From assembly GCA_043750125.1 (NCBI GenBank), contig JAYVCD010000420.1, positions 1-39,529 on the forward strand: a stretch of DNA of 39,529 nucleotides, given 5' to 3'. Made by a program: the position numbers and the translations under genes. The notes under the pieces are model-generated. The model saw only the letters and a program-made list of their open reading frames with translations. It was not told where the DNA came from and did not search any database. Origin of the DNA: Archangiaceae bacterium (GTDB lineage Bacteria > Myxococcota > Myxococcia > Myxococcales > Myxococcaceae). Of the stretch, positions 5,420 through 25,477 are shown piece by piece. How positions within the stretch are numbered: position 1 is the stretch's first letter; each line of letters opens with the position of its first letter.

Positions 5420-5600
5420 CCGACAAACCCGTGGATCAGGGAAGGAGAGGGCGGGTCAGCGCGCGTACCCACAGGTCAGAGTTCACTCCTGGGAGGGGGT
5501 TGCTGTGGGATCGGACGCGAAGCGCTTCTGCCAGAACCCGACATTGTGCCAGCAACCCGGGCTGCGGGGGCCGGGCGCATTTGAGTTAGCGTCCCCGGCC

Positions 5601-6530
5601 GTGCGCGTTCCCATTGTCGGCCTCGTCCTCCTCGTCGGGTGCAGCGGTTCCGTCTCGGTCCTCCCGGGGTTGGACGATGCTGGAAGGGATGGAGGCCTCG
5701 GAATGATTCCGGACGCGGGACTCGTTCCTGACAGCGGTGCGCCCGATGGCGGTGAGATCCCGGACGCTGGAATTCTTCCGGACGGCGGTGCGCCCGACGC
5801 AGGACAGGCCGACGCGGGCCGCGCGGATGCGGGCGGCTGCAGCGCGGCGTTCTGCGATGACTTCGAAAAATACGATTCGGGATCTCCGCCGCGCGGCCCC
5901 TGGTCCAACTCGGTCCAGGGTGGCACGGTCCTGGTCGACACCACCCGTTCTCACGGAGGTGGACGTTCGGTGCGCGTCACCACCGACGGGACCCAGGCCT
6001 ACCGCCGAGCCTATTTCGGACTCACGACCCCGTTCTTTCCCGTCGCCGGCAATGCCTTCTACGGACGAATGTGGGTGTACCTCACCGCGGCTCCGGCGAT
6101 GACCACTCACTGGACGACCATCTCGGGTGAAGGCACTGCGATGAACAACGGGACGGCGTTCCAGGCGTACGTCCGCTACGGCGGCCAGGTCGCCAAGCAC
6201 CTGATGGCCAACTACGACAGCTCGGTTTTTTCGTCGGACTGTTGGCAGCATTCGACGGTCGCGTTTCCTGAAGGAAAATGGTCCTGCATGGAATGGCACT
6301 TCGACGGGCCCAACTCGAAAATGGAATTCTGGCTCGATGGCGCGCAGATCTCTGCGCTCACCGTCAACCAGACCGGCCAGGGCTGCATCGGCAACGGCCT
6401 CGCCGGCAAGTGGGTGATGCCCGCCTTCGCCACGCTGCGGCTGGGCTGGGAGCACTACCAGACGTCCATTCCGATTGAGATGTGGGTCGACGATGTCGCG
6501 CTCGGCCCCAATCGCATCGGCTGCCAGTAG
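5601..6530 (+). CDS. Lipoprotein with PDAG linker and Cip1-like (polysaccharide-lyase-like beta-sandwich) core
   Basis: GTG start, lipobox LLVGC, DAG repeats, then FCDDFE, VDTTRSHGG, FYGRMW, HWT, RYGGQ, KWSCMEW, LGWEHY, WVDDVA, RIGC. Confidence 0.75.
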   Translation: MRVPIVGLVLLVGCSGSVSVLPGLDDAGRDGGLGMIPDAGLVPDSGAPDGGEIPDAGILPDGGAPDAGQADAGRADAGGCSAAFCDDFEKYDSGSPPRGPWSNSVQGGTVLVDTTRSHGGGRSVRVTTDGTQAYRRAYFGLTTPFFPVAGNAFYGRMWVYLTAAPAMTTHWTTISGEGTAMNNGTAFQAYVRYGGQVAKHLMANYDSSVFSSDCWQHSTVAFPEGKWSCMEWHFDGPNSKMEFWLDGAQISALTVNQTGQGCIGNGLAGKWVMPAFATLRLGWEHYQTSIPIEMWVDDVALGPNRIGCQ

Positions 6531-8792: not shown

Positions 8793-9057
8793 CGACGAAT
8801 TGGTCCGCAGTCATCGCGCGCCAGAGCCTAACCCAGGGGCAGACGGGCACCTCGAAGACGAACGATCAAACCAAAGCGGACAGTCCTCAGTCGCCCATGG
8901 AGAAGACGGCCTCATGGTCGCGCGCCTGTCAGGTCTTTCCGAGATCGATCCTCTGGCGTCCCGACTACGGGCCGTGAAACGCGGGCGGGCAGCCTTCGTT
9001 GCGGGCCGATCGATTGATGAATTGCCATTGCCGCGTCGCGGCCCGAGAGTGAGCCGG

Positions 9058-10245
9058 GTGCTTGCGTTGCTGCTCACGACTCAGGTGCTGATCTCGAGCA
9101 GCGCGCAGCCGGCGCCCGGGTCCTCGCTTCATCTCACCCTCGGCATCGACCGGCGGCTGTCGTGTCCCGTCAACGCGTTGCTCGAGAAGGCCGTGCGGTT
9201 GCGGCTACCCGCGGTGCGAATCGCGCTCGAAGGTCCAATCCGAAGCGGAGACCTCGTCGCGTCCCTTCAGCGCTTCGGGGGTGACGGCTGGCGCTTCGAG
9301 GTCAAACGTCCCGATGGCAGCGTCGAGATGAGCCGCGAATTCGGCGCGATGCCGTGCCCTCTCATCGCCGATACCAGCGCGTTGATTCTGGAGCGCTACC
9401 TGAGCGGCATCGACTGGAGCGGACGCTCCGTCGGCCTTGCCCCCCTTCCACCCCTCGAGCCTTCGCCGCGGACTGCCGACATCCCCAGACCGCCTTCTTC
9501 GCCCGTCGTTCCGCCGCCCGCCGCTCCGCCACCCGTCGCTCTCGAAGAACAGGTGCCCCTCGACGCGGGTCCGGAGCGCCCGACCGATGCCGGTCGACCG
9601 ATCGAACCGCCGGTGCCCGTTGCAGGCACGATCTCCACCCGCTCGGAATCCGACGCCGGAATTTCTCCGCCCGCTCGGCCTCACCCCCTCGACGAGCCTG
9701 CCCTGACGGCGCTCACCCTTTCACTCGGAGGGGGCGCCTGGGCGGGCGTACCGTGGGAAGTCTCGGGCGCGCTCAGTGGGCAGTTGGGCGTTCGCGTCCT
9801 GCGCCGCTTTCACCTTTCGCTGCTCTTCGTCGGCGCCCCTTCCACCGTCCGAAGCGTCACCTACCTGAACGAGTTTCGCGGGACCTTGGCCCTTCAATCG
9901 TTCGCAGGCCTCGCCACTTTCTCGGTCTGCACCACCGGAGCCGGCTTGTCGGCCTGCGGCGGACTGCTCGGAGGAGCCCGCGTCACCACCGCGCGCGCCA
10001 CGGGTCCGACCACCGGCCCCCGACTGTTTGCGACAACCTCGAGCCTCGCCGCGCTGCCGCAGCTGGGCCTGTACGGAAAGGTTTCCGCTCCGCTCTACGG
10101 CCGGTTTTCGCTGTCTGCCGACCTGATGATTGGCGCTCCGCTGGGTCGCGCTTCGTTCACCATTCAGGGCATCTCTGCGGCGGGGTACGCTACGCCCCGC
10201 GTCGACTTCAGCGGACTTCTCTATGTGGGCCTGCAGCTCTTCTGA
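9058..10245 (+). CDS. Exported hypothetical protein, possibly outer-membrane beta-strand-rich; first gene of an ECF cassette
   Basis: Signal-like VLALLLTTQVLISSSA, Cys-pair N-domain, Pro-rich linker, amphipathic beta strands ending YVGLQLF. Start uncertain (9049 or 9058). Confidence 0.7.
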   Translation: MLALLLTTQVLISSSAQPAPGSSLHLTLGIDRRLSCPVNALLEKAVRLRLPAVRIALEGPIRSGDLVASLQRFGGDGWRFEVKRPDGSVEMSREFGAMPCPLIADTSALILERYLSGIDWSGRSVGLAPLPPLEPSPRTADIPRPPSSPVVPPPAAPPPVALEEQVPLDAGPERPTDAGRPIEPPVPVAGTISTRSESDAGISPPARPHPLDEPALTALTLSLGGGAWAGVPWEVSGALSGQLGVRVLRRFHLSLLFVGAPSTVRSVTYLNEFRGTLALQSFAGLATFSVCTTGAGLSACGGLLGGARVTTARATGPTTGPRLFATTSSLAALPQLGLYGKVSAPLYGRFSLSADLMIGAPLGRASFTIQGISAAGYATPRVDFSGLLYVGLQLF

Positions 10246-10323
10246 CCTTGCCGGAAAGATTGTTTGAAGGACTCAGGCCCGCTGAGGCATCCACCTGCAT
10301 CCGCCTCGCCCTCGACTCGGTCC

Positions 10324-10887
10324 GTGAATGCCCAATCCACTGAAATCGCCCCTGATTTCGAGCTGCTCGCCAGTTGCCGGGCGGGGGACGCCGCCGCGTG
10401 GAGGCAGATTTACGACGCCCACTTCGAGTTTCTCGAGCGCATTTCCCGCCGGCTGGGAACTCCTGAGGCCGAGCTCGATGACGTGGTGCAGGAAACGTTT
10501 CTCATCGCGTTTCGGAAGTTGCGCTCCTTTCAGGGCGGGCAGTTTTCGACCTGGCTGTACCGAATCGCGGCGAACGTCGTCTCCGGCCGGCACCGGCACC
10601 GTCGCATTCGTTCTGCCTTTCAATCGCTCTTCGGCGAAGGAGAAGTGCAACACGCCCGCGCACCCGATCGCGAGTACGAGGCCAGCGAAGCCCAGGCCTG
10701 CGTCGCTCAGGTGCTCGAGCGAATGGCCTTCAAGAAACGCGAAGTCTTCGCCCTCTATGAGCTGGAAGGACTGTCGGGGGAACAGATCGCCGAACGCATC
10801 GGCTGCAAGGTCGACACCGTCTGGACCCGCCTTCACTACGCCCGCAAAGACTTCGAGCGGATTGCGCGAAAGCGCGGTCTTCCCTGA
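10324..10887 (+). CDS. ECF-type RNA polymerase sigma-70 factor
   Basis: Region 2 DDVVQETFL...FSTWLYRIAAN; region 4 ELEGLSGEQIAERIGCKVDTVWTRLHYAR. The ORF could start at 10264. Confidence 0.93.
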   Translation: MNAQSTEIAPDFELLASCRAGDAAAWRQIYDAHFEFLERISRRLGTPEAELDDVVQETFLIAFRKLRSFQGGQFSTWLYRIAANVVSGRHRHRRIRSAFQSLFGEGEVQHARAPDREYEASEAQACVAQVLERMAFKKREVFALYELEGLSGEQIAERIGCKVDTVWTRLHYARKDFERIARKRGLP

Positions 10888-10899
10888 CTGAAAGCAGCC

Positions 10900-12546
10900 A
10901 TGCCCGACCTTCCCGAAATCGAGCCGAAGCGACTGAGCGAGACCTCCGACTCTGACCTGTCGCGATTGATCGCCTCGGCGCGCACCGGCGCAGCGACGAC
11001 TCGAACGGGCTCGCGCGAGCGCATCTGGAAGAAGCTGATTCATGCTCCGGCCCCCAGCCACGCTCGGTGGTTGATTCCCGCGGTTGCGGTGGGGTGTGCG
11101 GCGCTGGTCTTCTTCTTCCGGCCCCAGCCTTCGGCTTCGCCTCTGCTCTCAGCTGAGCCGTTCGCCACCCTCGCGCTGGCCTCGGGAGCCGTCGATGCCG
11201 CCAGCGCCGGCGCCTGGTCCGTCGCCCAGGTCGGAGCGCCGCTGTCCGAGGGCTCTCGACTTCGCACCGCCGCGAACAGCCGCGCCTACACCCGGTTTTC
11301 CGGCGGCGGCGCGTTGTTCGGTGAGGGGACCCTCGCCGCGCTCAGCCGCGAGGGAGCAGGGCTCGCAGTGAAGCTCGAGGTCGGTGCGGCGACGTTCGCG
11401 CTGCGGCAAGACTCCACCCCTCTGCACGTCGGCGCTGCGGCCTTCGCCGTCGATACCCACGGGTCCGTTTTTCAAGTGAAGGTCGGCTCGGAGCAGGTCG
11501 TGGACGTCCTCGTTCATGAAGGCACGGTGCGCGTACGCGGGCCCTCGACCGACCTGGGGCTCGCAGCCGGACAGAGCTGGTCGAGCCGAACCGGTCCCGG
11601 CCACGCGACGATGAATGAGACCGATGCCGCGACTGCGCGTGTGCTCGGCGCGCTGAGCGAACCCAAAGCAACGCTTCGAATCCCCACCCCGGTCGGGGCC
11701 GAAATCACAATCGACGGGGTCCGCCTCGGGCTGGCTCCGCTCGGGGTCCTCCAGCCGCTTGGCCCGCACCAGGTCACCGCCGAGCATCACGGCGAACGAA
11801 TCAGCGGTCAGGTGGTGCTCGTCGCGCAAGACACCGCGTTCCAGCCCGCCGAACCTCCTTTGCCTCAGCTCGCGTCGCCGGCCGAGAAGCCGTTGTCCCT
11901 GCGCCCGGGCGAAGTCGACCCCGCCGCGCCGCTGCAACAAAAGTTGAAGGGCGCGCTGTCTCCCGGCGACCGCGACACCGCCAGCTACGAGCTCGCCCGC
12001 GTCCTTTGCCGCCGGGGAAAAAATACCGAAGCGCTCGGGCTGTACGAGAAATTGGCCGTGGGGTCCGGCGCCTGGAGCGAGCCGGCTCTCTACGAAGTCG
12101 GTCGCCTCAAGCTGCGCTCGCTCTCCGACCCCGCCGGTGCGGTCACCGCGTACGCCGACTATCGCCGCCGATATCCCGCCGGGGCGCTCGCGCACGAGGT
12201 CGCGCTGAGCTCGATCGAAGCGCAGCTCGCGCGGGGCTCGGTCACAGACGCACTGCGCGAGATGGACGCTTTCCTGGTCACGTTTGCTTCGAGCGAGCGG
12301 CTCGAAGACGTCCGCTTCGTTCGCGCCACCGTCCGCCGAGATCGCGGCGATTGTGAAGGGGCGCTGTTCGATTACCTCTTGTTGGTGAAGAGCGCGCGCC
12401 ACGGCGACGACGCGCTGTACTTCTCGGCCTATTGCGCTCAGCAGCAGGGTGACGCGAACGCCGCGCGGCGCGGCCTGTCGCAGTACGTGCTCCAGTTTCC
12501 CGGAGGCCGTCACCTGGCCGAGGCGAGGGCGGCGTTGGGTCGGTAG
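10900..12546 (+). CDS. FecR-like anti-sigma factor with PEGA-like and TPR-like regions
   Basis: Follows the ECF sigma. TM WLIPAVAVGCAALVFFF, FecR-like GSVFQV..VLVHEGTVRV, PEGA-like GAEITIDG..G.APL, helical repeats ending YRRRYPAG and YVLQFPGG. Confidence 0.82.
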   Translation: MPDLPEIEPKRLSETSDSDLSRLIASARTGAATTRTGSRERIWKKLIHAPAPSHARWLIPAVAVGCAALVFFFRPQPSASPLLSAEPFATLALASGAVDAASAGAWSVAQVGAPLSEGSRLRTAANSRAYTRFSGGGALFGEGTLAALSREGAGLAVKLEVGAATFALRQDSTPLHVGAAAFAVDTHGSVFQVKVGSEQVVDVLVHEGTVRVRGPSTDLGLAAGQSWSSRTGPGHATMNETDAATARVLGALSEPKATLRIPTPVGAEITIDGVRLGLAPLGVLQPLGPHQVTAEHHGERISGQVVLVAQDTAFQPAEPPLPQLASPAEKPLSLRPGEVDPAAPLQQKLKGALSPGDRDTASYELARVLCRRGKNTEALGLYEKLAVGSGAWSEPALYEVGRLKLRSLSDPAGAVTAYADYRRRYPAGALAHEVALSSIEAQLARGSVTDALREMDAFLVTFASSERLEDVRFVRATVRRDRGDCEGALFDYLLLVKSARHGDDALYFSAYCAQQQGDANAARRGLSQYVLQFPGGRHLAEARAALGR

Positions 12547-14589: not shown

Positions 14590-14605
14590 AGCACGCCCTA
14601 TGCCA
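14590..14605 (-). promoter_or_regulatory. Sigma54 -24/-12 promoter motif for the response regulator
   Basis: TGGCATAGGGCGTGCT (GG-N10-GC), about 25 nt upstream of the start codon with the RBS in between. Confidence 0.65.
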
Positions 14606-14725
14606 CTGCCCCGACCGGGCAAGGCGCCTCGGATCAGCGGCTATAAGTCCCGATCGAGGCGGATTGCCACGCACTACAGAGGCCCCGACCCACCGCCCTG
14701 GGATCTGCTTTTTCGCTCCTCGCGC

Positions 14726-14741
14726 TGGTCAGGATTCTGCA
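14726..14741 (+). promoter_or_regulatory. Possible sigma54 motif for the DUF2382 genes
   Basis: TGGTCAGGATTCTGCA (GG-N10-GC), about 57 nt upstream of GTG 14798. Confidence 0.4.
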
Positions 14742-14797
14742 GACGTTATTCACCCAGTTCACCAGTCAAAAAAAGCTGGTTTGCGAAGGGTAAATTT

Positions 14798-15250
14798 GTG
14801 CGGTCCGCCGAGAAGGGTTCAAAGAAAAAGAGCGCAGTCAGGTCTGCACCGGGTACCCCCCCCATCGTCATTCCAGTCATCGAGGAAACGGCGCAGGTCG
14901 GGACCCGGGTGGTCGATACCGGCAGGGGCGTGAGGCTTCACAAGCACGTCACCCAGCGCGAAGAGCACATTGATCAGCCCCTGATGGCCGAGGAACTGAT
15001 CATCGAGCGCGTGCCCGTCGACCGGATCATCGCGGGCCCCGAGCCCACCCCCCACTACGAAGGCGAAACCTGGGTGGTCCCGGTTCTGGAAGAGGTGTTG
15101 GTCCTCGAGAAAAAGATTCGCCTCAAGGAGGAAGTTCGCATCACGCGACGCAAGCGCGAGGTCCATGCCTCGCAAACGGTCGATTTGAGATCTGAGGAAG
15201 TGTCAGTAGAGCGGTTCGACGAGTTGGAAACAGGAGGCCGTCATGGCTAA
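14798..15250 (+). CDS. YsnF/AvaK (DUF2382) domain protein, short
   Basis: IPVIEE..VG.RVVDTG.GVR, IERVPVDR, VPVLEEVLVLEK..LKEEVRI, LRSEEVSVER. Start approximate. Confidence 0.85.
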   Translation: MRSAEKGSKKKSAVRSAPGTPPIVIPVIEETAQVGTRVVDTGRGVRLHKHVTQREEHIDQPLMAEELIIERVPVDRIIAGPEPTPHYEGETWVVPVLEEVLVLEKKIRLKEEVRITRRKREVHASQTVDLRSEEVSVERFDELETGGRHG

Positions 15251-16295
15251 CGCAGTGGTAGCGGTATTCGACGAATACAACGAAGCGCAGAGCGCAGTGA
15301 ACGAGCTGATCGTGGCGGGTTTCGCCAAGAATGAAATCAAGCTGAGTGGAGAAAACGGAAACGGAAACGGAATGACGGCCACCCCCGAGGCGCGGCCGCA
15401 GCACGAAGGTGGAATCAAAGGGTTCTTCAAATCGCTCATCGGCATGGACCAGGAAACCGAAGACGTTCGCCTCTATGACGAGGCGGTTCGGCACGGCAAT
15501 TTCGTCGTCACCGCGATCGCTGTCACCGAAGAGAAAAGTGAGATCGCCTCTGAGGTGCTCAGCCACCACCACCCGGTCGACCTCGAAGAGCGGTCCTCCG
15601 AATGGTCGGCCGACTCGAGCTCGTCCTCACCGTCCAACGACAATCGGGTCTCCGAAGCGGCCAACCCGAATTTGGCTTATCAGCAGCCCGCCGCCCGAAC
15701 CGACAGCCGCGCGATTCCGGTGATCGAAGAGGAAGTGAAGGTCGGCAAGCGGGAAGTCCAACGCGGTGGAGTCCGAATCTTCCAGCGGGTCTCAGAGGTT
15801 CCGGTCGAAGAGGAAGTGACGCTTCGCGAAGAGCACGTCGTCGTCGAGCGGGTTCCGGTCAACAAGCCGGCCAGCGAAGCCGACATGAGCGCTTTCAAAG
15901 AAGGCTCGACCGAGCTGCGCGAGAAGGCCGAGGAAGTGGTGGTGTCCAAGAGCGCCCGGGTGGTCGAGGAAGTGCGCGTCGGAAAGGAAGTCTCCGAGCG
16001 CAAACAGCGCGTCCGGGAAACGGCCCGCCGAACCGATGTCGAAGTCGAGCGCACCGGTGACGAGGGCTACCGGGCCCACTGGCAGCAGGCTTACGGCAGC
16101 CAGGGTGGACGGTACGAGGACTACCAGCCGGCCTACGAGTACGGGTCGACCGCCGCCGCCAGCCGCCAGTACATGGGCCGCGATTGGGACGAAGTCGAGC
16201 CGGAGCTCAAGCGCGACTGGGAAGCGCGCAACCCCGGCAGCGCGTGGGAACGGTTCAAGGCTTCCATCCACCACGCCTTTCAATCCAAGTACTGA
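15243..16295 (+). CDS. YsnF/AvaK (DUF2382) stress-type protein with general-stress-protein-like N-terminus
   Basis: GGAGG RBS; VVAVFD..EAQ.A..EL...GF N-terminus; IPVIEEEVKVGKREVQRGGVRI; KSARVVEEV; C-terminal YEDYQPAYEYG..WDEVEPELKRDWE. Confidence 0.9.
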   Translation: MANAVVAVFDEYNEAQSAVNELIVAGFAKNEIKLSGENGNGNGMTATPEARPQHEGGIKGFFKSLIGMDQETEDVRLYDEAVRHGNFVVTAIAVTEEKSEIASEVLSHHHPVDLEERSSEWSADSSSSSPSNDNRVSEAANPNLAYQQPAARTDSRAIPVIEEEVKVGKREVQRGGVRIFQRVSEVPVEEEVTLREEHVVVERVPVNKPASEADMSAFKEGSTELREKAEEVVVSKSARVVEEVRVGKEVSERKQRVRETARRTDVEVERTGDEGYRAHWQQAYGSQGGRYEDYQPAYEYGSTAAASRQYMGRDWDEVEPELKRDWEARNPGSAWERFKASIHHAFQSKY

Positions 16296-16416
16296 TTGAG
16301 CGGGGCCGGACTGCCTGCGCTTGAAGGCTGAAATTCAATGACTCCTTGGCGGTCGATGCCCGGCCGCCGAGGATGCGCCTCCCGCCGCCGGAAGTGCGCA
16401 CCCCAGGAGTCATTTG

Positions 16417-16773
16417 ATGATTCACATTTTCTTCATCGCGTGGTCACTCGCGCACAGCGACCCCGACGCCCTCAAGCGCGAAGCCCGCGCAGTCAGCAAT
16501 CCCACCGGGTGCACCCAGCTTTCCCAGTGCAAGGTGTTGGCCCTGGGCAGCAAGCCATGCGGCGGCCCCAGCGAGTTCCTCGTCTATTGCTCCACCAGCA
16601 CCGATGAGCGCTTGCTCGAAGCCAAAGTCCGGCTCGCCACCGATGCGGAAAAGGCGAAGAACGCCGCCAACCAGATGATGGGAATCTGCACCGCGCTCAG
16701 TGTCCCGAGGGTGAAGTTTCAAAACGGCCAATGCCTTGCCGATGAAGCGAAGGCGGCTGACGTGCCGATGTGA
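16417..16773 (+). CDS. Small exported Cys-containing hypothetical protein
   Basis: AGGAG RBS, short hydrophobic N-terminus, C..SQC...GSKPCGGP..LVY motif; stop overlaps the next start (GTGA). Confidence 0.75.
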   Translation: MIHIFFIAWSLAHSDPDALKREARAVSNPTGCTQLSQCKVLALGSKPCGGPSEFLVYCSTSTDERLLEAKVRLATDAEKAKNAANQMMGICTALSVPRVKFQNGQCLADEAKAADVPM

Positions 16774-17417
16774 AGCTGTCCTCGAGCTGGAAACATCTGC
16801 GCGCGGTCCTGGTCCTCGGGCACATCGTGGCGATGGTGCTCACCGCCATTCCTGCCCCCGTGGGCGGTACGGACAGAGCCGCTTGGAAGAACCCCACCGC
16901 GCAGCTGGAATTTGCGACCTACGCCCACTTTCTCGGCGTTCCCCCCGCCGAATTCGAAGAGAAGCTCTACCAGTTGGCCACCTTCTGGATGGGCATTCGC
17001 GCCATCTACCTGCGCCCCGTCGAGCCCTACCTGCGCATCACCGGCACCGACCAACCCTGGCGCATGTTCGTCGGGCCCGATCGGTTTCCTCCCCGCTTCC
17101 AACTTCAATCCCGTACCGCCGCGACCGACTTCGTCACCCTGTACGAAGAGAGGTCCGAGCAGCACGTCTGGCACGAAGAGTTTTTCCGCCAGGAACGGGT
17201 CCGCAGCTACACCTACCGCTACGCATGGCCGGAATACGCCTGGTCCGAAGGGCAGAACTGCAACTACCTCGCGCACCGCGTCTTCGCCGAGCAGCCCGAC
17301 GCGGCCCAGGTGCGCTGCCGATTCTGGAAGCAGAAGACTCCCTCTGCCGCCGAGGTCATTGCCGGCAGCCCCCTCGAGCCGGGCACGTGGGAAAACGTTC
17401 TGGTGTTGACCCGATGA
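16770..17417 (+). CDS. Membrane-anchored hypothetical protein, HTTM-partner-like
   Basis: N-terminal hydrophobic helix and a GTDQPWRMFVGPD motif of the Q.W.MF.P type seen in HTTM-associated domains; coupled to both neighbours. Confidence 0.7.
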   Translation: MKLSSSWKHLRAVLVLGHIVAMVLTAIPAPVGGTDRAAWKNPTAQLEFATYAHFLGVPPAEFEEKLYQLATFWMGIRAIYLRPVEPYLRITGTDQPWRMFVGPDRFPPRFQLQSRTAATDFVTLYEERSEQHVWHEEFFRQERVRSYTYRYAWPEYAWSEGQNCNYLAHRVFAEQPDAAQVRCRFWKQKTPSAAEVIAGSPLEPGTWENVLVLTR

Positions 17418-18337
17418 ACGCCTGGACGCGCTGGGCCGACCTGCTCGACCGCCGCGAAGGCGCGATTCCACTGGCGCTGTGCCGAATCATCGCCGCCGTC
17501 ACCGTCTGCCTTCACCTGGTGACGATGTGGACCAGCGGCACTGCGATGGGAGTCTGGGTCTCGGTGAAGTTCGGGGGCATTCGCGAATCAGATCTCGACT
17601 GGCTCGAGTTCCTCGGCGGTGCCACTCCGCTCAACATTCGCCTCGCGCTGGCCTTCGGGATCTGCAGCTCTGCCCTGATGGCGTTGGGCGCCTTCACCCG
17701 CGTCACCACCGTCTGCACCTGGCTGTCCTTCCGACTTCTCACCGGGCTCAACAACCACTCGGGCGGCTCGTCCGATGACCTGCTGGTCAACATTCTCTTC
17801 TTGCTGATGTTCGCCGGTTGCGGAGGCGCGCTCTCTTTCGACCGTCGCAACCAGGCTCCCGCCTACGTCCCCGTCTGGCCCCGCTACGTCCTCATCGGCC
17901 AGCTGGTGCTCGTCTACTGGATGACCGGCCTGCAGAAGGTCTCGGCCGCGTGGCTTCCCGGTGGCCCCCTCGACGCCCTCTGGTACATCTTTCAGCAGCC
18001 CTCGTGGCAGCGGATCCCGATGCTCTGGCTCGCCCGGCTGTATCCGCTGACCCAGCTCGGGACCCTGGTCGCCTGGACCTTCGAGCAGACCGCTCCGTTG
18101 CTGCTGTTGGCCTTCTGGTACCGCTACACCCCGCACCGGCCGGGCAGGGTGCGCGCGCTCTTCAACCGCCTCGACTTCCGCGCGGTGTACCTGGCCATCG
18201 GAGTGATGCTCCACCTGGGCATCTGGCTGACCCTCGAGGTCGGCCCATTTTTCGGAGGCGTGTTCGCGCTCTACGCCTGCTGCTTCACCGCCGAAGAATA
18301 CCGAAATTTCGTCTTCCGGATTCCAGCACGGCTGTAA
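17414..18337 (+). CDS. HTTM-domain polytopic membrane protein (gamma-carboxylase/SdpB-like superfamily)
   Basis: ATGA overlap; LALCRI, GAFTR, NNHSGGSSD, ALSFD, QLVLVYWMTGLQK, FE, HLGIW, VGPF; several TM helices. Confidence 0.8.
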   Translation: MNAWTRWADLLDRREGAIPLALCRIIAAVTVCLHLVTMWTSGTAMGVWVSVKFGGIRESDLDWLEFLGGATPLNIRLALAFGICSSALMALGAFTRVTTVCTWLSFRLLTGLNNHSGGSSDDLLVNILFLLMFAGCGGALSFDRRNQAPAYVPVWPRYVLIGQLVLVYWMTGLQKVSAAWLPGGPLDALWYIFQQPSWQRIPMLWLARLYPLTQLGTLVAWTFEQTAPLLLLAFWYRYTPHRPGRVRALFNRLDFRAVYLAIGVMLHLGIWLTLEVGPFFGGVFALYACCFTAEEYRNFVFRIPARL

Positions 18338-18393
18338 GCGCCCCTGTGTGGGTGCCTTCACGCCTACCGCAGCACTTTAATTGACGCTCAAAT

Positions 18394-18414
18394 CCCCGGT
18401 GGCTTCGGCCGGGG
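18394..18414 (+). promoter_or_regulatory. GC-rich hairpin with cUUCGg loop overlapping the ribosome-binding region of the cyclase gene
   Basis: CCCCGGTGGCTTCGGCCGGGG: inner GGC-TTCG-GCC, outer CCCC/GGGG, ending 6 nt before ATG 18421. Confidence 0.4.
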
Positions 18415-18420
18415 GGCCTT

Positions 18421-21400
18421 ATGTCCGTTCTGAAGGTCGAGCTTCAAGCTGCTGAACGCGCTGTCCAGCGGGCGCAGCGGGTCCTTTGGCAATCGCAGCG
18501 CTCCGATGGATCCTGGGATAGCGCCTGTGAAGTCGGGCCGTGGGTCACAGCTCAGGCCGTGGTCGCCCTTCGCTGGCTCGGGGTGCTCGACGAGGCCGAC
18601 ACCGCGGGCGCCGTGCGCTGGTTGGCAGGGCAGCAACGGCACGATGGCTCGTTTGCCATTCATCCCCTCGCGCCGCACGGCGACCTGGCCGCGACCGCTT
18701 CGGCCTGGGCTGCCCTTCATTCCTGCGGTGATGCCCAGGCCGCCGCTCGTGCCCGCGCCTGGGTCAACTCAAACGGTGGCGTCAATGCCGTCATCGAAAG
18801 GCTTGCGACCGGAGATCTCGCGGCGGTGTTCCTCTCCCTGGCCGGTGTCCTCGACCCGCGACGGCTGCCCCTGACCTCGACGACTTTCCTCCTGGCACCC
18901 CCTGTGCTGCACTTCCTGCAGACGCGGTTCCATTCCGGCGTCTTCATGGCCGCCTTCCAGCTCGAGCTGATCATTCGGCGCCTGCGCGGACACTTTGGCC
19001 AAGACGGCACTTCGATGCGGCTGCTCGACCGGGTGAAATCGAGGAAATGCATCGAGCTGCTGGCCCGGTTTCAAAACACTGACGGAAGTTGGAACGACAG
19101 CTCAGTCCTCAGCGTGCTTGCGCTTCCTGCCCTTGTCGCCGCCGGGCTGAAAATCAGTGATCCGATGCTCGCCCGACCGCTGCAATGGCTCGAAGCGCAG
19201 AAGATTCGCGACAAAGACGGGCTTCACTTCGCTGGCTTCGGCACCGAAGTCTGGTCCACCGGCTTCGATGTTCGCGCCCTGCTGGGCTCCGGCGCCGCGC
19301 CCTCTGACCCTCGGGTGCGTCACGCGCTGCAGTGGCTGACCCGCGCGCAGCTTCAAACTCCGATGCCGGCCGTCGACAACCGCCAGAAGGGCGCGCCGCT
19401 AACCGGAGCCTGGGCGTTTCAGGCCACCAACCACACCATGCCCGACGCCGACGACACCGGGGTCGTGCTCTCTGCTCTGGGTGCCGCGTTGAAATGGCGC
19501 GGCACCGGAGAGTTGGACAGCGACCTCCAACAGCGCCTGCGCGCTTGTGCCGACCAGGGCCGCGCGTGGCTGCGCGGAATGCAGAACCCCGATGGAGGCT
19601 GGTCGGCCTACGTCTGGGGCTTGCCGGGAAAGAAGCCCGGGCCCGCGATGTCCAGCGCCACCCGCGTGGATCCGCACGACCTCGTCTCGCTCGCCTCGTT
19701 GATCCTCCATCCGCCCGCCTCCTTGAGCGACCCCTCGACCGAAGATCTCACCGCCCGTGTTCTTCATGGCCTGGGGCAGCTGGGACATACGGTGCACGAG
19801 CCCGACATCGCCCGCGCGATCCGGTTTCTTCAGCAGCAGCAATGCGACAGCGGCGCGTGGTGGGGTCGCTGGGTCGTCAACTACCTCTCGTCTACCGCGT
19901 TCGTGCTGATGGCACTTCGCTCGGTCCGCGCCGACCTGCACGCGCCCTGGGTCCAGAAGGCAATCGCCTGGGTCCTCTCGAAACAAAACGCCGATGGAGG
20001 CTGGGGCGAGGGCCCCGAGTCCTATCGAAACCCCGCCCTCGCCGGCCTGGGCCCCAGCATGCCCCCCCTGACCGGGCTCGTCGTCCAGGGTCTGCTCGAC
20101 ACCGACCAGGGGGAGTCCGAGTCGGTCGAGCGGGCCATCGGCTACTTGCTGACCCAGCAGCGCTCTGACGGCACCTGGCCCAACGGCGAATATCTGCACG
20201 CCAACATTCCGCCCGAGACCTTCTTCGTCTACCCCGAGGCGGCCCGCTTTTATCCCACCGAGGCGTTGGGCAAATACCTCGCCTTTCGTCGCCAGCGCCC
20301 AGGTCCCCCCGGCCTGCCCCGATGGAATGGGCCACTGCTCGACGCGATGCGCGACACCGGGGACCCCCTCGCCGACGCAGTCATCGAAAACGTCTTCGCC
20401 ACCGGCGCGGGCCCCGCGGTTCGAGAGCTGATGGGAAACATTTTTCGCACCGACGAGCCGATGCCCCTCGGGCTGCCCGAAAATGTCGTCGAGTATTTCA
20501 GCGCCACGGCGCCCCTTCCGGCGTGGGCCGACCCGACGAAGATCGCTTTGGCCCAGCAGCTGTTTTCCCGCGCCGGGTGGCAAGCGGCGATTGGGTTGTT
20601 CTGTTCGGCCCTGCCTCAGTCCTACGCCGCCGCGAAGGGCGCCCACGTCATCGTCCAAACCCAGGCGCTGACCCGCCACGTGCACCAGCGCATCTTCGAG
20701 ACCGCGCAGTTCCTCTTCGATGTCCTCGATGACCAGGCCCTGTTCCCCGGCGGCAGAGGCATTCGCGCGATCCAGAAAGTGCGGCTGATGCATGCCGGAG
20801 TGCGGCACCTGTTGCTCACCCGCACTTCTGCGCCCTGGGACTCCGCTCGCCTCGGTCACCCCATCAACCAGGAAGACCTCGCCGGAACGTTGATGGGTTT
20901 TTCAGTCGTCACGCTCGACGCGCTCGATCGCCTGGGGTCCCCCGCCAGTCCCGGTGAGGCCGCCGCGTGGATCCACACCTGGAAGGTGATCGGCCACCTG
21001 CTCGGGGTCCGCGAAGACTTGTTGCCCGCCGACCATCACGATTCGGCTTTGTTGATGGACGCAATCCGAGATCGCCAGTGGGCTGCCTGCGCTGATGGCC
21101 AGGGGCTGATCAAACCTCTCATCGCCCTGATGGAAAGCTTCTGGCCCGGCCATGGGCTCGACGGGTTGCCGGTGGCGCTGGTCCGCCACCTGGCCGGAGA
21201 CCATTGCGCCGATCTGCTTGGCCTGCCCCGGGCCGACTGGACCCAGGTCCTCATTCGGGCGGGCAGCACCCTCGATGCGCTGCTGGGCCGAGCCACTCCC
21301 CAGCTCGCCGGGCCGCTGATCGCCCATGTCACCCAGTTGATGATGAAGGCCATCGTCGCGGTCAATCGAGAAGGAAAACAGGCCCGGTTCCGCCTTCCGA

Positions 21401-21441
21401 CCTCGCTTCTCCGCACGGTGGTGCCTGACGGTAATCGGTAG
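18421..21441 (+). CDS. Fusion of a squalene-hopene-cyclase-type class II terpene cyclase (aa ~1-620) and a DUF2236 Lcp/MpaB-type oxygenase (aa ~635-1006)
   Basis: PDADDTG acid motif; QW repeats QRSDGSW, QRHDGSF, QNTDGSW, QNPDGGW, QNADGGWGE, QRSDGTW; WWGRWVVNY. C-domain GDPLADAV, LPAWAD, RIFET, VRLMHAGVR, PINQEDLAGT, HTWKVIGHLLG. One uninterrupted ORF. Confidence 0.9.
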   Translation: MSVLKVELQAAERAVQRAQRVLWQSQRSDGSWDSACEVGPWVTAQAVVALRWLGVLDEADTAGAVRWLAGQQRHDGSFAIHPLAPHGDLAATASAWAALHSCGDAQAAARARAWVNSNGGVNAVIERLATGDLAAVFLSLAGVLDPRRLPLTSTTFLLAPPVLHFLQTRFHSGVFMAAFQLELIIRRLRGHFGQDGTSMRLLDRVKSRKCIELLARFQNTDGSWNDSSVLSVLALPALVAAGLKISDPMLARPLQWLEAQKIRDKDGLHFAGFGTEVWSTGFDVRALLGSGAAPSDPRVRHALQWLTRAQLQTPMPAVDNRQKGAPLTGAWAFQATNHTMPDADDTGVVLSALGAALKWRGTGELDSDLQQRLRACADQGRAWLRGMQNPDGGWSAYVWGLPGKKPGPAMSSATRVDPHDLVSLASLILHPPASLSDPSTEDLTARVLHGLGQLGHTVHEPDIARAIRFLQQQQCDSGAWWGRWVVNYLSSTAFVLMALRSVRADLHAPWVQKAIAWVLSKQNADGGWGEGPESYRNPALAGLGPSMPPLTGLVVQGLLDTDQGESESVERAIGYLLTQQRSDGTWPNGEYLHANIPPETFFVYPEAARFYPTEALGKYLAFRRQRPGPPGLPRWNGPLLDAMRDTGDPLADAVIENVFATGAGPAVRELMGNIFRTDEPMPLGLPENVVEYFSATAPLPAWADPTKIALAQQLFSRAGWQAAIGLFCSALPQSYAAAKGAHVIVQTQALTRHVHQRIFETAQFLFDVLDDQALFPGGRGIRAIQKVRLMHAGVRHLLLTRTSAPWDSARLGHPINQEDLAGTLMGFSVVTLDALDRLGSPASPGEAAAWIHTWKVIGHLLGVREDLLPADHHDSALLMDAIRDRQWAACADGQGLIKPLIALMESFWPGHGLDGLPVALVRHLAGDHCADLLGLPRADWTQVLIRAGSTLDALLGRATPQLAGPLIAHVTQLMMKAIVAVNREGKQARFRLPTSLLRTVVPDGNR

Positions 21442-21493
21442 GCGCTTGCCCGCACCGCAACCCGTAGGTTATCGGCCCCCCGAGACCTCTGCA

Positions 21494-22966
21494 GTGCTCC
21501 CTTCGTCCACTGATGTCTTCGCCCTCTTCGACTCGCTGGGCGCCGTCACGTTCGCGATTGACCCCGTCACCCTCGACATCCGTTTTTTCGGGTCTGGGGT
21601 GCGCGAGCTGTTGGGCCTCGCACCCGATGCGCAGTGTGAGGGCTCCTCATTCTGGAAAGAGCTCATTCCTGCGGGCGAGCTCAGCTCGGTGCTCGGGACG
21701 CTGCAAAGCGTCGCGGTCGACGGAACCTGCCGCACCTTCGAGCACCGCGCGCGCGTGCCCCACCGCGGCGAAGTCTGGTTTCGCACCCGGGTGCAGCGCT
21801 CGGATTCCAGCCCGTGCCTGGTCGGAGTAATGCACGACATCAGCACCGCCCGTCACACCGAGCGCCAGTGCCGCGAAAATGAGCAGTGGCTCGTGACGCT
21901 GGGCGAGACCTTGCCCTTCGACTTCTGGATCTGCGACCTCGAAGGCCGTTACCTGCTGCAAAACCCGGTGTCGATTCGGCGGCTCGGAAATGCCCTCGGG
22001 CGACGCAGCGTCGAGCTCGGTTTGCCCGCCGAAGCCCAGCGCCGCTGGCAGCACAGCTTCACCCGCGCGCTCGCCGGCGAGACTGTCCACGAGCGGCTCG
22101 AGTCCCAGGTCGACGGGGAACGACGATTCTTTGCCCGCGTGCTTTCCCCCCTCGGCCAGGGCCCGGAGATCAACGGGGTCCTGGGGGTCGACATCGACAT
22201 CACCCAACTGACGCAGTCCGAAGAACGCCTGCGCCAATCACTCGAGGATCTCGGGCTGGCTCAGGAAACGCTGGTTCGCCGGGAACAGCTCGCGGCGCTG
22301 GGCGAAATGGCCGCGCTGATCGCCCATGAAGTGCGCAACCCGTTGGGCTCGATCGCCAACGCAGTCACCTTGTTGCGCCGCGGCAACCCGCTCTCGGCGC
22401 CCGATTCCGGGCTGTGGGAAGTCATCAAGGACGAAGTTCAGCGCCTCGACCAGCTGGTCAGCAACCTGCTCGATTTCGTGCGCCCTTCCGTTCCGAAGTT
22501 TTCTCCCCGGTCACTCGAGAGCGTGGTCGAGGGCGCGCTGCTGCTTTCTTTGCGCACCGAGGAAGCCTCCGACCGGATCGAGATTGTTCGCAACGTCGAA
22601 GCGGGGCTGCCGCTGGTCTCCATCGACGGGCCGCTGCTCGAGGTCGCGTTGACCAACGTGTTTCGCAACGCGATGCAAGCGATGGCCGGCACCGGCCACC
22701 TTCACGTCGCGATCGGGCGCGAAGAGCGGGCAGACACCCAATGGGCCCGCATCACGATTCGCGACAGCGGCTGCGGCATCGTCCCCGAAGTCAGAAAGCG
22801 AATCTTCGAGCCCTTCGTGACGACCCGCGCCCGCGGGTACGGCCTGGGCCTGACCATCGTCAAAAAGGTTCTCGACCTCCACCTGGGTGAAGTCGATCTT
22901 CAAAGTGAGCTCGGGCAAGGCACCACCTGCGTGCTCCGGCTCCCCATTTTGCGAAAGGTCGGCTGA
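21494..22966 (+). CDS. Cytoplasmic PAS-PAS sensor histidine kinase
   Basis: Two PAS-like segments, LGEMAALIAHEVRNPL, NVFRNAMQA, DSGCGI, FEPFVTT, GYGLGL. The ORF could start at 21446. Confidence 0.92.
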   Translation: MLPSSTDVFALFDSLGAVTFAIDPVTLDIRFFGSGVRELLGLAPDAQCEGSSFWKELIPAGELSSVLGTLQSVAVDGTCRTFEHRARVPHRGEVWFRTRVQRSDSSPCLVGVMHDISTARHTERQCRENEQWLVTLGETLPFDFWICDLEGRYLLQNPVSIRRLGNALGRRSVELGLPAEAQRRWQHSFTRALAGETVHERLESQVDGERRFFARVLSPLGQGPEINGVLGVDIDITQLTQSEERLRQSLEDLGLAQETLVRREQLAALGEMAALIAHEVRNPLGSIANAVTLLRRGNPLSAPDSGLWEVIKDEVQRLDQLVSNLLDFVRPSVPKFSPRSLESVVEGALLLSLRTEEASDRIEIVRNVEAGLPLVSIDGPLLEVALTNVFRNAMQAMAGTGHLHVAIGREERADTQWARITIRDSGCGIVPEVRKRIFEPFVTTRARGYGLGLTIVKKVLDLHLGEVDLQSELGQGTTCVLRLPILRKVG

Positions 22967-22968
22967 AG

Positions 22969-23373
22969 GTGGGAACCTGGAAGGTGGATTCCGCGCTCTG
23001 GCCCGTCGTCATCCACTCGGTCGATGGGTCCTTGAGCAATGCCGAAATCGACGACTACGTCCGCGGCGCAACCGACGTTTTTTTGCGAAGCGGGTCCCAC
23101 GTCGCGATCATGGACATCTCGAAAATGGGGTCGGTCTCGGCGTATTCACGCTCTCGAAGCGCCGCCTGGCTCAAGCAGCACCGCGCGCAGCTCGCGCTGT
23201 CCTGCCTGGGAGTGGCCTATGTCATTCCGAACGCGCTGCTGCGGTTCATCACCATGACCGTGATGCTCGTCATCACCTTGCCGATGCCCTACGTGGTGGT
23301 CTCGACCCGCGCCGAAGCGCTGCTCTGGGCCCACCAGCGGCTGGGCTCAACCGATTCTGCAGCCCCACCCTGA
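22969..23373 (+). CDS. Small STAS/SEC14-like domain protein
   Basis: WPVV..., DISKMG, GVAYVI.NALLRFI.T, PY.VV.TRAEAL.WA pattern typical of myxobacterial STAS/SEC14-like proteins; starts 2 nt after the kinase stop. Confidence 0.65.
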   Translation: MGTWKVDSALWPVVIHSVDGSLSNAEIDDYVRGATDVFLRSGSHVAIMDISKMGSVSAYSRSRSAAWLKQHRAQLALSCLGVAYVIPNALLRFITMTVMLVITLPMPYVVVSTRAEALLWAHQRLGSTDSAAPP

Positions 23374-23377: not shown

Positions 23378-24247
23378 CTACTTCAGCGCTTCCGCACCCG
23401 AGACGATCTCCATCAGTTCCTTGGTGATCGCCGCCTGGCGGGTGCGGTTGTAGAACAGCGTCAGCTTGCCGATCATCTCGCCGGCATTCTTGGTCGCGTT
23501 CTCCATCGCCGTCATCCGCGCCCCGTGCTCGCTGGCCACCGAGTCGAGCAGCGCCCGGAAGATTTTGATCTTCAGCGCCTGCGGGACCAGCTTGTCGAGC
23601 ACCGTCTGGGCGTTGGGCTCGTACAGGTAGTCGACCTTCGTCCCGCCACTGCTCGCCGGCGCGGCCGCCTCGAACGGCAGCAGCTGCGAGAAGTTGATCC
23701 GCTGCGAGATGGCCGAGATGAACTCGTTGTTCGCCAGGTACACCGCGTCGATCTCGCCGGAAAGGAATCGCTGCGCCAGCTCGTCGGCCACCTCGGCGGC
23801 ACCGGCGTAGGTGACCTTGCTCATCATCCCCGGGTAGTCCTTGCGCATCTTGAAGCCGCGGGCGCGGAAGAAATCTCCCCCCTTGCGGCCGACCGAGGTG
23901 ATGGTCACTTCGTACTTCCCGCCGCTCTCGGTGAGGAACTTCAGCGCCCGCCGGTTGATGTTCGAATTGAACCCGCCCGCCAGGCCGCGATCTGAAGTCA
24001 GCACCAGCACTTCAATCTTCTTCACTTCCCGCTTCACCAGCAGCGGGTGGGCGACGTTCCCGTTCTCTGCGCGGCTCATCACCTCGGCGATCATCTTGTC
24101 GAGCGTGCTCGCATACGGCCGGGCCGAAACGATTGCGTCCTGGGCCCGGCGCAGCTTCGCCGCCGCGACCATCTTCACCGCCCGGGTAATCTGGCGGGTG
24201 CTCTTCACCGACTTGATGCGCTTGCGGATATCTCGAAGGGAGGCCAT
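23378..24247 (-). CDS. atpG: F1F0 ATP synthase subunit gamma
   Basis: [78 protein letters not shown]. Confidence 0.98.
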
Positions 24248-24364: not shown

Positions 24365-25477
24365 ATGAAACAGATTGTCATCGCCGGGACCTGCCTGTTT
24401 TTCATGGCCTGTACCCCGCAGAAACTCAAAAAGACGCTCCCTCCGGACATCCGGGTGGATACCTACGCCCAACAGTCGGCCTCCAAAATCGACGTCCTCT
24501 GGGTGGTCGACGATTCCGGCTCGATGGGCCCCCGGCAAGAGAACCTCGCCAAAAACTTCCAGGCCTTCATCGACGTCTTTTCCAGAGGCGCAATCGACTT
24601 CCGCATCGCGGTGACCACCAGCGACATCTTCAAGGTCCGCGGGCAGTTAAAGGGCAGCCCCAAGATTCTCACCCCCAGGACCCCCGGGCTGATCGCCGCC
24701 TTCGAGAGAAACGTGAAGGTCGGCATCGACGGCAGCCCCTACGAAGCCGGGCTTCAGGCCGCGCTGCTCGCCCTCGAGCTTCAAAAAGAGGCCAACGTCC
24801 CGAAGGAAACCGCCCGCCAGGCCTGCATCGCAATCTGCAAAGGCAACCCGACCTGCAGCGACACCTGCACCGTCACCAACCCGTTCGACTTCCTTCGCCC
24901 CGACGCCTACCTCTATTTGATCTTCGTCACCGATGAAGAAGACCAGTCCAGCGAAGACGTTCGCTTCTATTGGCGCTCGTTCGAGACCGCCAAGGGCCTG
25001 GGCAACGACGGCACCGTCACCACCGCGGCGATCATGGGCGATGTCCCCACCAACAGCTGCGGAGCCACTCCCGGCAGCCGCTACAAGGCCCTCTCAGAGC
25101 TCACCGGCGGCGATGTCGGCAGCATCTGCGACACCAATTTTTCGGCCACCCTGAAGAAGCTCGCCACCAACGCAGTGGGCCTGAAGCGGAAGTTCGCCCT
25201 GGGGAAGAAACCCAACCTTTCCACCATCGAGGTCTTCGTGAAGTACCCCTGCGATACCTCTGATGAAATCCTCAAGTCCTGCGCCTCGGTCGACAAGACC
25301 GACTGCCTCGGGAACCCGGCCGAATCGGTGAACCTCGTCTGCACTCCGGTGCACGACGGGCCCGACGGCTGGACCTACGAGCCGATGAACCAGGTCATCT
25401 TCTTCTCCGGTGAATCGGTGCCCTTCCTCAAAGGCCAGGTCGAGATTCACTACTACGAAGAAGGCATGGGGCCGTGA
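24365..25477 (+). CDS. vWA-domain lipoprotein
   Basis: Lipobox FMAC; MIDAS DVLWVVDDSGSM; DFRIAVTTSD; FLRPDA.L.LIFVTDEEDQS; GSIC. Confidence 0.85.
   Translation: MKQIVIAGTCLFFMACTPQKLKKTLPPDIRVDTYAQQSASKIDVLWVVDDSGSMGPRQENLAKNFQAFIDVFSRGAIDFRIAVTTSDIFKVRGQLKGSPKILTPRTPGLIAAFERNVKVGIDGSPYEAGLQAALLALELQKEANVPKETARQACIAICKGNPTCSDTCTVTNPFDFLRPDAYLYLIFVTDEEDQSSEDVRFYWRSFETAKGLGNDGTVTTAAIMGDVPTNSCGATPGSRYKALSELTGGDVGSICDTNFSATLKKLATNAVGLKRKFALGKKPNLSTIEVFVKYPCDTSDEILKSCASVDKTDCLGNPAESVNLVCTPVHDGPDGWTYEPMNQVIFFSGESVPFLKGQVEIHYYEEGMGP

Follow-up and report, generated by a model that had tools for sequence, protein, structure and literature searches.

Can the closing of terpene rings and the cutting of an isoprenoid chain be united in one bacterial protein, and on which substrate would such a protein act? 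The question is raised by an open reading frame (ORF) encoding a protein, P0001, at positions 18421 to 21441 (plus strand) of a stretch of 39,529 nucleotides, hereafter the window, from an Archangiaceae bacterium (Myxococcota; assembly GCA_043750125.1, contig JAYVCD010000420.1). The genome is a metagenome-assembled genome (MAG) of 6.17 Mb in 460 contigs and is 89% complete. A first-pass annotation of the window described the ORF as a triterpene cyclase fused to an oxygenase of the MpaB and latex clearing protein (Lcp) kind, which would cyclise squalene or another polyprenyl chain and then cleave the remaining tail. We find that the fused gene is genuine; comparative genomics argues strongly for a module of the two enzymes, and squalene is an unlikely substrate for the family as a whole.

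A cyclase and an oxygenase in one reading frame

The frame of 1006 codons stays open throughout, and a GGGGGG resembling a ribosome-binding site lies 6-12 nt 5' of its ATG. The parts of the gene are as follows.

18421..21441, plus strand: whole fused gene, P0001, 1006 aa, stop codon included
18421..20295, plus strand: class II terpene cyclase domain of the squalene-hopene cyclase (SHC) type, residues 1-625 (Pfam PF13249 and PF13243, phmmer, Foldseek)
19444..19458, plus strand: DADDT general-acid motif, D342-A-D344-D345-T346, aligning with DVDDT of SHC
20296..20340, plus strand: Pro-rich linker, residues 626-640, RPGPPGLPRWNGPLL (from the sequence; a part of the model with low predicted local distance difference test (pLDDT) values)
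20341..21441, plus strand: MpaB/Lcp-type (DUF2236) globin-like haem oxygenase domain, residues 641-1006 (PF09995, phmmer, Foldseek)
20689..20703, plus strand: distal-side active-site helix R757-I-F-E760-T761 (alignment to LcpK30)
20782..20805, plus strand: R788-L-M-H791-A-G-V-R795, with the putative proximal haem ligand His and two flanking Arg (alignment to LcpK30)

Three Pfam families are matched above their curated gathering cut-offs: SQHop_cyclase_N (PF13249; 1.6e-29, 103.5 bits) and SQHop_cyclase_C (PF13243; 7.1e-74, 249 bits), each with a cut-off of about 26, and MPAB_Lcp_cat (PF09995; residues 729-942, 3.9e-22, 79.9 bits) with a cut-off of 23, which bears out the earlier description of a full class II cyclase and a full DUF2236 domain in one ORF. 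A regular-expression scan finds a single DxDD, the DADD at 342, and six canonical QW repeats (QxxxGxW at residues 26, 218, 388, 474, 522 and 580) together with a seventh motif at residue 72 that is an F variant (QxxxGxF), in agreement with the first-pass count of at least six repeats beside D342-A-D-D-T346. The same scan of P0001 reveals neither a signal peptide nor a transmembrane-like stretch, and an intracellular enzyme is the best reading of this sequence.

The AlphaFold2 model of full-length P0001, computed with 66 homologues, reaches a pLDDT of 89.7 and a predicted template modelling score (pTM) of 0.89, and the latter points to a single fixed arrangement of the two domains; pLDDT falls below 50 in three segments, namely the linker at 626-629, residues 956-959 and the C-terminal tail 1001-1006. 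In a Foldseek comparison, the model matches SHC 3sqc with a template modelling (TM) score of 0.83 and 28% identity, and Lcp 5o1l with a TM score of 0.74; the cyclase domain adopts the double alpha/alpha barrel of the SHC fold in this model, and no solved chain found by Foldseek spans both halves.

Relatives were sought in a collection of 5.8 billion proteins, which returned 197, and the best 120 of these 197 were listed. PF13243 and PF09995 occur together in all but one of the 120, and the exception (P0065) is an 803-aa partial sequence. These homologues have lengths of about 1000 aa and share 44-61% identity with P0001; those with a named source are from Myxococcota MAGs and Pyxidicoccus xibeiensis, a cultured species whose orthologue (P0114) is 44% identical, and the public databases list the sequences under automatically assigned names, for example 'oxygenase MpaB family protein' or 'squalene cyclase'. 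The junction at 20280-20340 contains no stop or frameshift, and it is spanned without a single difference by Logan contigs of 4 runs, which all belong to one study and two of which may be the source of this DNA. Both halves lie within one open frame in 45 of 80 related loci. An assembly artefact or a frameshift at the junction was considered and is ruled out by the homologues with both domains, the unchanged Logan contigs and the 45 one-frame loci. The fused gene is genuine. No RNA-labelled run contains the stretch, which carries no weight on expression.

Conservation was assessed in an alignment of 113 homologues of 940-1060 aa taken from the 120. The cyclase columns D342, D344, D345, W278 and W484 are invariant in 113/113, F333 is kept in 112/113, and the oxygenase columns R757, E760, T761, R788, H791 and R795 are likewise invariant in 113/113. 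Both active sites are therefore under selection.

Comparison of the cyclase domain with SHC

In a phmmer search against PDB sequences, residues 197-620 align to the SHC of A. acidocaldarius (1gsz) with an E-value of 5.7e-59, and DADDT 342-346 falls on DVDDT 374-378 of that enzyme. Class II cyclases with a DxDD motif protonate the terminal isoprene double bond and then close rings, and the residues of the initiation site are retained in P0001 (SHC/P0001: W312/W278, F365/F333, Y420/Y397, W489/W484 and Y609/Y604). Deep in the cavity, the same alignment reveals replacements: F601 corresponds to I596 (a column of V, I or L among the fused homologues), F605 to T600, Y612 to A607 and Q262/P263 to S228/V229; I261 is replaced as well, and E45 and E93 correspond to Q45 and a Ser. 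We take these positions of SHC (F601, F605, Y612, I261/Q262/P263, E45 and E93), together with H451 and Y495, to tune the acid or to shape the far end of the cavity.

The score for the NCBIfam equivalog TIGR01507 (hopene_cyclase) is 283.3 bits, below the cut-off of 431.1 that defines SHC proper, and that for the squalene/oxidosqualene cyclase subfamily TIGR01787 is 269.7 bits, below 322.7. An identity as an oxidosqualene cyclase (OSC) is contradicted by TIGR03463 (149 bits against a cut-off of 851) and by the motif, which is DADDTG instead of the VxDCTAE type. By its sequence, the domain belongs to the SHC/OSC class II superfamily without qualifying as SHC proper or as OSC.

One barrel of the P0001 model is also matched, with TM scores of 0.67-0.68, by the ~345-residue chains 8pak and 8paj, deposited as 'squalene-hopene cyclases' of Cystobacter fuscus and Archangium gephyra; myxobacteria thus hold more small class II cyclases.

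Comparison of the oxygenase domain with Lcp

Residues 648-991 align by phmmer to residues 56-399 of LcpK30 (5o1l) over about 340 residues (E 4e-25). R757, T761 and H791 fall on R164, T168 and H198, the correspondence on which the first-pass annotation had relied, with R788 and R795 matched to R195 and R202. In the accessible parts of PMC6311187 and PMC5522427, H198 is the proximal haem ligand of Lcp, K167 the distal ligand and E148 the proposed base, R195 and R202 have a structural role, and the enzyme splits internal C=C bonds of polyisoprene to leave keto and aldehyde ends; R164 and T168 are described as required for activity and not for haem binding, and Lcp as an extracellular enzyme acting on rubber (PMC5522427, as far as accessible). 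The accessible part of PMC6900556 adds that PgMpaB cuts the terminal olefin of a farnesyl side chain, and the earlier appeal to Lcp and MpaB as precedents for isoprenoid C=C cleavage accords with these three sources.

From the alignment, haem b is probably bound through H791. The domain belongs to PF09995 and, judged by its residues, falls outside the latex clearing proteins proper, because an export signal, the distal Lys and the equivalent of Glu148 are all missing from P0001. Latex clearing proteins are exported by the Tat pathway.

A second MpaB/Lcp-family gene, stand-alone and with a frame of 488 aa, is present elsewhere in the same genome (contig C353, locus L006); its product is 32-35% identical to the C-terminal domain and clusters with distant stand-alone homologues in the oxygenase tree described below.

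Linkage of the two halves

One genome per species was scanned for related loci, and the best 80 of 457 encoding stretches were kept and classed by their open frames.

Fused, one open frame: 45 loci, with Myxococcota or old 'Deltaproteobacteria/Proteobacteria' titles and one titled Amaricoccus
Oxygenase (~390 aa) then cyclase (~626 aa), same strand: 20 loci, all Solirubrobacterales, with L081 assigned here by hand
Cyclase then oxygenase in another frame: 2 loci (L085, L086), which are separate genes or frameshifts
Divergent cyclase and oxygenase: 3 loci (L047, L052, L056)
Cyclase alone: 10 of the 80 loci

Of 18 oxygenase-then-cyclase loci of the Solirubrobacterales that were inspected, 17 have the oxygenase stop and the cyclase start overlapping in an ATGA or GTGA; in L055, for instance, the oxygenase occupies 7989-9161 and the cyclase 9158-11038, an order that is the reverse of the fusion. 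The oxygenases of these pairs are about 35% identical to the C-terminal domain and the cyclases about 50% identical to the N-terminal domain, and the proteins retain VDNDDTG (cyclase) and R..ET with the His (oxygenase). Among the cyclases that stand alone, those of L045, L046, L066, L075 and L087 have a contig end at the relevant side, and the contig of L060 ends 92 nt past the cyclase. The maintenance of cyclase and oxygenase together in three or four arrangements and in two phyla is the strongest evidence for one pathway, and it argues strongly that the two form a two-enzyme module, a conclusion well supported by comparative genomics. A complex prediction for a separate Solirubrobacterales oxygenase (residues 1-372) and cyclase (9-626) gave a score of 0.00 with controls not run, and has no weight either way.

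The locus titled Amaricoccus sp. (L036), an alphaproteobacterium, holds a fused gene in a layout nearly identical to those of the Sandaracinaceae MAGs L034 and L041; the title is probably a binning or labelling slip, and a transfer could also be the cause.

Phylogenies of both halves were inferred from short searches and contain several long branches. In a quick maximum-likelihood tree of 62 cyclase domains, with six unfused Myxococcota SHC-family cyclases as the outgroup, all cyclases of the P0001 kind form one clade (SH-aLRT 100) apart from the outgroup and from the OSC of the same genome, and the Solirubrobacterales cyclases are nested within the fused Myxococcota ones. In a midpoint-rooted tree of 61 oxygenase domains, the fused C-terminal domains form one clade, the oxygenases of the Solirubrobacterales and of L085/L086 lie outside it, and some stand-alone Myxococcota oxygenases are closer to it than these are. 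In a sample of 301 Myxococcota genomes, the full-length one-frame fusion is present in 18, including the genome of the window, and five further genomes hold pieces of it at contig ends or in adjacent frames.

Gene neighbourhood

The 955 ORFs of the best 80 loci and the window were clustered, and cluster representatives were scanned with Pfam and NCBIfam. Two genes follow the fused gene on the same strand.

21446..22966, plus strand: PAS/HisKA/HATPase histidine kinase (Pfam), starting 4 nt 3' of the fused gene
22969..23373, plus strand: 134-aa protein with no Pfam or NCBIfam match, 3' of the kinase (cluster c3, in 14 loci)

The kinase family lies directly 3' of the fused gene in 10/45 fused loci, and the trio of fused gene, kinase and 134-aa protein recurs in 10/45, which suggests an operon in one Myxococcaceae/Archangiaceae subclade. 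Besides these two families, the Myxococcota neighbours comprise DUF2378/TIGR02265 proteins and a Ser/Thr kinase; those in the Solirubrobacterales comprise TetR, MFS, glyoxalase, SDR and family-less proteins, and a redoxin is also among the scanned representatives. Neither the Solirubrobacterales oxygenase nor the small conserved neighbours receive an NCBIfam name, and the neighbourhoods of three stand-alone oxygenase homologues hold nothing recurrent.

Other genes of the window are described here for completeness. At 16414-18337 (plus strand), the coding frame indicated by third-position GC shifts twice (16414-16773, 16770-17417 and about 17420-18337), and a family match (HTTM, PF05090, 1.3e-10) is confined to the last part. 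The region holds three short genes, or else a single gene interrupted by two frameshifts, and the arrangement is not conserved beside the fused gene in other loci. Adjacent paralogues at 14600-15250 and 15243-16295 (plus strand) each contain DUF2382, the second with a weak YflT-like N-terminus. An ATP synthase gamma subunit gene (PF00231, 1.4e-102) occupies 23378-24247 on the minus strand, and the ORF beside it at 24365-25477 (plus strand) has no Pfam match.

Availability of squalene

The fused gene encodes the sole SHC-type cyclase of its genome. The one other cyclase is an OSC with a WPITDCT motif and a lanosterol synthase match of 6e-171, encoded on contig C415 (locus L008, 5418-7439) some 9-11 kb from a squalene epoxidase gene (16725-18155) and a divergent squalene-synthase-like gene (18238-19143), all within about 14 kb. 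These three genes indicate that squalene is available in this organism, which probably makes sterols, to judge from its gene content. A carotenoid cluster, CrtB-CrtI-CarH, is present on contig C30 (L004).

The distribution of squalene synthesis among other carriers is different. To our knowledge, the SQS_PSY family covers all known squalene, presqualene and phytoene synthases. It is absent from 9 of 10 Solirubrobacterales/Actinomycetes carriers of the pair (0 of a first five and 1 of a further five were positive, in genomes of unstated completeness), and trans-polyprenyl synthases, two or three each, are present in all five of those tested. In four of the first five carriers searched, no SHC-family match other than the paired cyclase exceeds about 36 bits; the fifth genome (G301) has a further weak match of 21 bits, below the cut-off, 0.5 kb from the paired cyclase. 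An orthologue of the squalene synthase found near the OSC is present in 8 of the 23 Myxococcota genomes with the fusion, 2 have a more distant relative and 13 have none at E 1e-25; 9 of those 13 were searched with the SQS_PSY model, and 8 have at least one gene of this family, which takes in squalene and phytoene synthases alike. The ninth, a genome that is 97% complete (G162), carries the fusion and no SQS_PSY gene.

Squalene is unlikely as the substrate common to the family because the NCBIfam scores are below their cut-offs, the cavity residues of SHC are replaced and carriers without SQS_PSY exist. The label of triterpene cyclase given in the first-pass annotation is consequently not supported; a triterpene product is possible in this organism but would not characterise the family. 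The distribution is better explained by a regular polyprenyl chain, either free or bound to a head group (a quinone, for example), than by squalene.

Proposed reaction and its alternatives

We consider it somewhat more probable than an even chance that P0001 is one bifunctional enzyme, in which proton-initiated cyclisation and O2-dependent C=C cleavage of one isoprenoid yield a shortened cyclic terpenoid carbonyl. The N-terminal DxDD domain would protonate a terminal isoprene unit and close one or more rings, and the C-terminal domain, with haem b held through H791, would split a trisubstituted C=C bond of the same molecule with O2, leaving ketone and aldehyde ends. Both steps together would turn the isoprenoid into a cyclic nor- or apo-terpenoid that is shortened and bears a carbonyl group. 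We infer from the alignments and from the linkage that haem is bound, that the bond is cleaved in this way and that both domains act on one substrate. The coupling of the two activities proposed in the first-pass annotation is upheld by the fusion, the operon-like pairs, the divergent adjacency and the occurrence in two phyla; the proposed order, cyclisation and then cleavage, is not, as the gene arrangements conflict: the cyclase is first in the fusion and the oxygenase first in the Solirubrobacterales, and these hints on reaction order cancel out.

Several observations weigh against the bifunctional enzyme. In the cyclase, H451 of SHC is replaced by R446, which is invariant in the 66 rows of alignment A1, and Y495 by S490, in a column that is S or A among the fused homologues, so that the surroundings of the acid are unlike those of SHC. 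In the oxygenase, the distal ligand K167 of Lcp corresponds to the invariant E760, a position that is also Glu in the Solirubrobacterales oxygenases, and the proposed base E148 corresponds pairwise to G740, in a gapped stretch where the column is less certain; the distal pocket is therefore unlike that of Lcp, the only solved relative. As a speculation, E760 may replace E148 as the base. Additionally, no gene of prenyl, squalene or quinone synthesis is conserved beside the pair among the neighbour representatives of the 80 loci, which makes the substrate a guess. No intact oxygenase lies within about 8 kb of the flanked cyclases of L061, L067, L077 and L083, and stand-alone oxygenases 35-45% identical to the C-terminal domain are present in many Myxococcota genomes in which no cyclase of the clade was detected, which indicates that each half can work alone. 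Finally, the oxygenase tree is incongruent with the cyclase tree, a hint, not a proof, that the oxygenase partner was exchanged or recruited more than once. In L077, a weak oxygenase-like match at about 5364-5786 (29% identity, E 1.5e-8) lies 5' of the intact cyclase and may be a decaying partner.

Squalene as the substrate, partly cyclised to a triterpene whose remaining tail is then cut to give an apo-triterpenoid instead of a hopanoid, is a rather unlikely alternative. It would suit an organism equipped with a squalene-synthase-like gene, an epoxidase and an OSC on C415, in which the fused gene is the only SHC-type cyclase, and SHC is the closest solved structure; the changes F601 to I, F605 to T, Y612 to A and Q262/P263 to S/V would, given the roles we assume for these residues, fit an early termination that leaves a tail. 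However, the NCBIfam scores of 283 against 431 (hopene_cyclase) and 270 against 323 (squalene/oxidosqualene cyclases) speak against it, as do the 9 of 10 Solirubrobacterales/Actinomycetes carriers that have no SQS_PSY gene and, in all five tested, hold polyprenyl synthases, the fusion in G162 and the presence of a squalene synthase of this organism's type in only 8 of the 23 Myxococcota carriers. A reversed order, in which the oxygenase cuts a long polyisoprenoid (a polyprenyl or quinone chain of the cell, or one from soil or prey) and the cyclase then closes rings on the fragments, possibly for catabolism or scavenging, appears distinctly unlikely. SHCs cyclise ketones of the farnesylacetone type, the family is independent of squalene synthase, and the Solirubrobacterales place the oxygenase gene ahead of the cyclase gene and repeatedly have genes for TetR, an MFS transporter, glyoxalase and SDR in the vicinity; the oligo-isoprenoids that Lcp yields do carry terminal keto and aldehyde groups, according to the accessible part of PMC5522427. 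Gene order is nevertheless no guide to reaction order, the Myxococcota fusion places the cyclase first, and no beta-oxidation or uptake genes are conserved beside the pair among the scanned neighbour representatives; moreover, P0001 has no signal peptide, whereas rubber oxygenases act extracellularly, as far as these sources extend.

The departure of the distal pocket from that of Lcp at E760 and G740 would also be compatible with a different oxidation by the haem domain, such as an epoxidation or hydroxylation that supplies an epoxide to the cyclase or decorates the cyclised product. We give this little credence, since the characterised members of the family with an identified product cleave C=C bonds in the accessible parts of PMC6311187 and PMC6900556, namely the Lcps and MpaB, beside which an MpaB-family oxygenase is implicated in nitrile-rubber degradation; the cyclase, for its part, keeps the alkene-protonating DxDD and not the single-Asp motif of the OSC in the same genome (WPITDCT). 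That the globin-like haem domain is no catalyst at all and instead senses gas or redox state to regulate the cyclase or the adjacent histidine kinase is scarcely credible. The alternation of the Lcp globin fold between six- and five-coordinate haem (PMC5522427, accessible part) and the PAS kinase that adjoins the fused gene in the subclade described above, together with a kinase next to one stand-alone oxygenase homologue, are in keeping with a sensor, but the PAS kinase is limited to that subclade and never directly adjoins the Solirubrobacterales pairs, and R757 and T761, whose equivalents in Lcp are catalytic and not haem-binding in the accessible text, are invariant in 113/113.

Returning to the bifunctional cyclise-and-cleave enzyme, a more far-reaching version is put forward tentatively, as a possibility that we hold with considerable doubt: the pair would be a self-contained module that makes undescribed bacterial nor-terpenoids, as volatiles or signals, from a regular polyprenyl chain such as a menaquinone tail. 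The pairing would have been assembled or reassembled more than once, yielding the Myxococcota fusion and, with an oxygenase of another lineage, the Solirubrobacterales operon.

Comparison with known systems

Class II cyclases on the one hand and Lcp/MpaB oxygenases on the other have been studied well, and a joint unit was not found reported: the literature search returned no paper describing a fusion or pair of a cyclase and an MpaB/Lcp oxygenase, and two recent survey papers on triterpenoid cyclases and hopanoid genes (PMC12324236; bioRxiv 10.1101/2025.07.29.667474) are silent on the architecture in the accessible portions of their main text. If the proposed reaction is correct, soil Myxococcota and Solirubrobacterales would contain an unknown family of shortened cyclic terpenoids, ring closure and chain scission would be coupled in one protein as a new biosynthetic logic, and the large, mostly unassigned bacterial DUF2236 family would acquire its first intracellular, biosynthetic role. 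Such an enzyme could serve as a one-protein biocatalyst for cyclic carbonyls resembling ambrox or ionone. SHC-like genes of the P0001 kind are, as a caution, unsuited as hopanoid markers in genome surveys.

The SHC of A. acidocaldarius (1gsz/2sqc/3sqc) shares the double barrel, the DxDD acid, the QW repeats and the aromatic residues of the initiation site with P0001. In contrast to that enzyme, P0001 falls below the NCBIfam cut-offs, carries a C-terminal haem domain, has replaced residues both deep in the cavity and next to the acid, and represents a type of cyclase that is present in genomes without squalene synthase. Divergent 'SHC-like' sequences with no assigned function were reported in Myxobacteria and Actinobacteria by Santana-Molina et al. 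2020 (PMC7306690, as far as accessible), and the P0001 family resembles them in being divergent SHC relatives of the same taxa; whereas only the Planctomycetes members of that SHC-like group keep the critical catalytic residues in the accessible text, the P0001 family keeps DxDD in 113/113. The drimenyl diphosphate synthase AsDMS of Aquimarina spongiae (9m7f), fused to a HAD domain, likewise joins a class II barrel to a second catalytic domain that acts on the same terpenoid (PMC12324236, accessible part), and it is a weak fold match to the P0001 model. However, the partner in AsDMS is a phosphatase-type HAD domain, there is one barrel, and the substrate is a C15 diphosphate.

On the oxygenase side, LcpK30 of Streptomyces sp. 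K30 (5o1l/5o1m) has PF09995, the R/T/H triad, the equivalents of R195 and R202 and the globin-like fold in common with the C-terminal domain of P0001. The two differ in that Lcp acts on rubber outside the cell, according to the accessible literature, whereas the P0001 domain lacks a signal peptide and shares its chain with a cyclase, and in the invariant Glu at the position of K167 and the Gly at that of E148. The fungal MpaB/MpaB' of the mycophenolic acid pathway belongs to the same Pfam family by name, with no direct sequence comparison, and is the nearer precedent in function, being biosynthetic and intracellular and trimming the prenyl chain of a small molecule at its terminal olefin (PMC6900556, accessible part); it differs from P0001 in being fungal and stand-alone and in its substrate, a farnesylated phthalide. 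Set beside these systems, P0001 is a new bifunctional combination of known kinds, with neither a new fold nor new chemistry.

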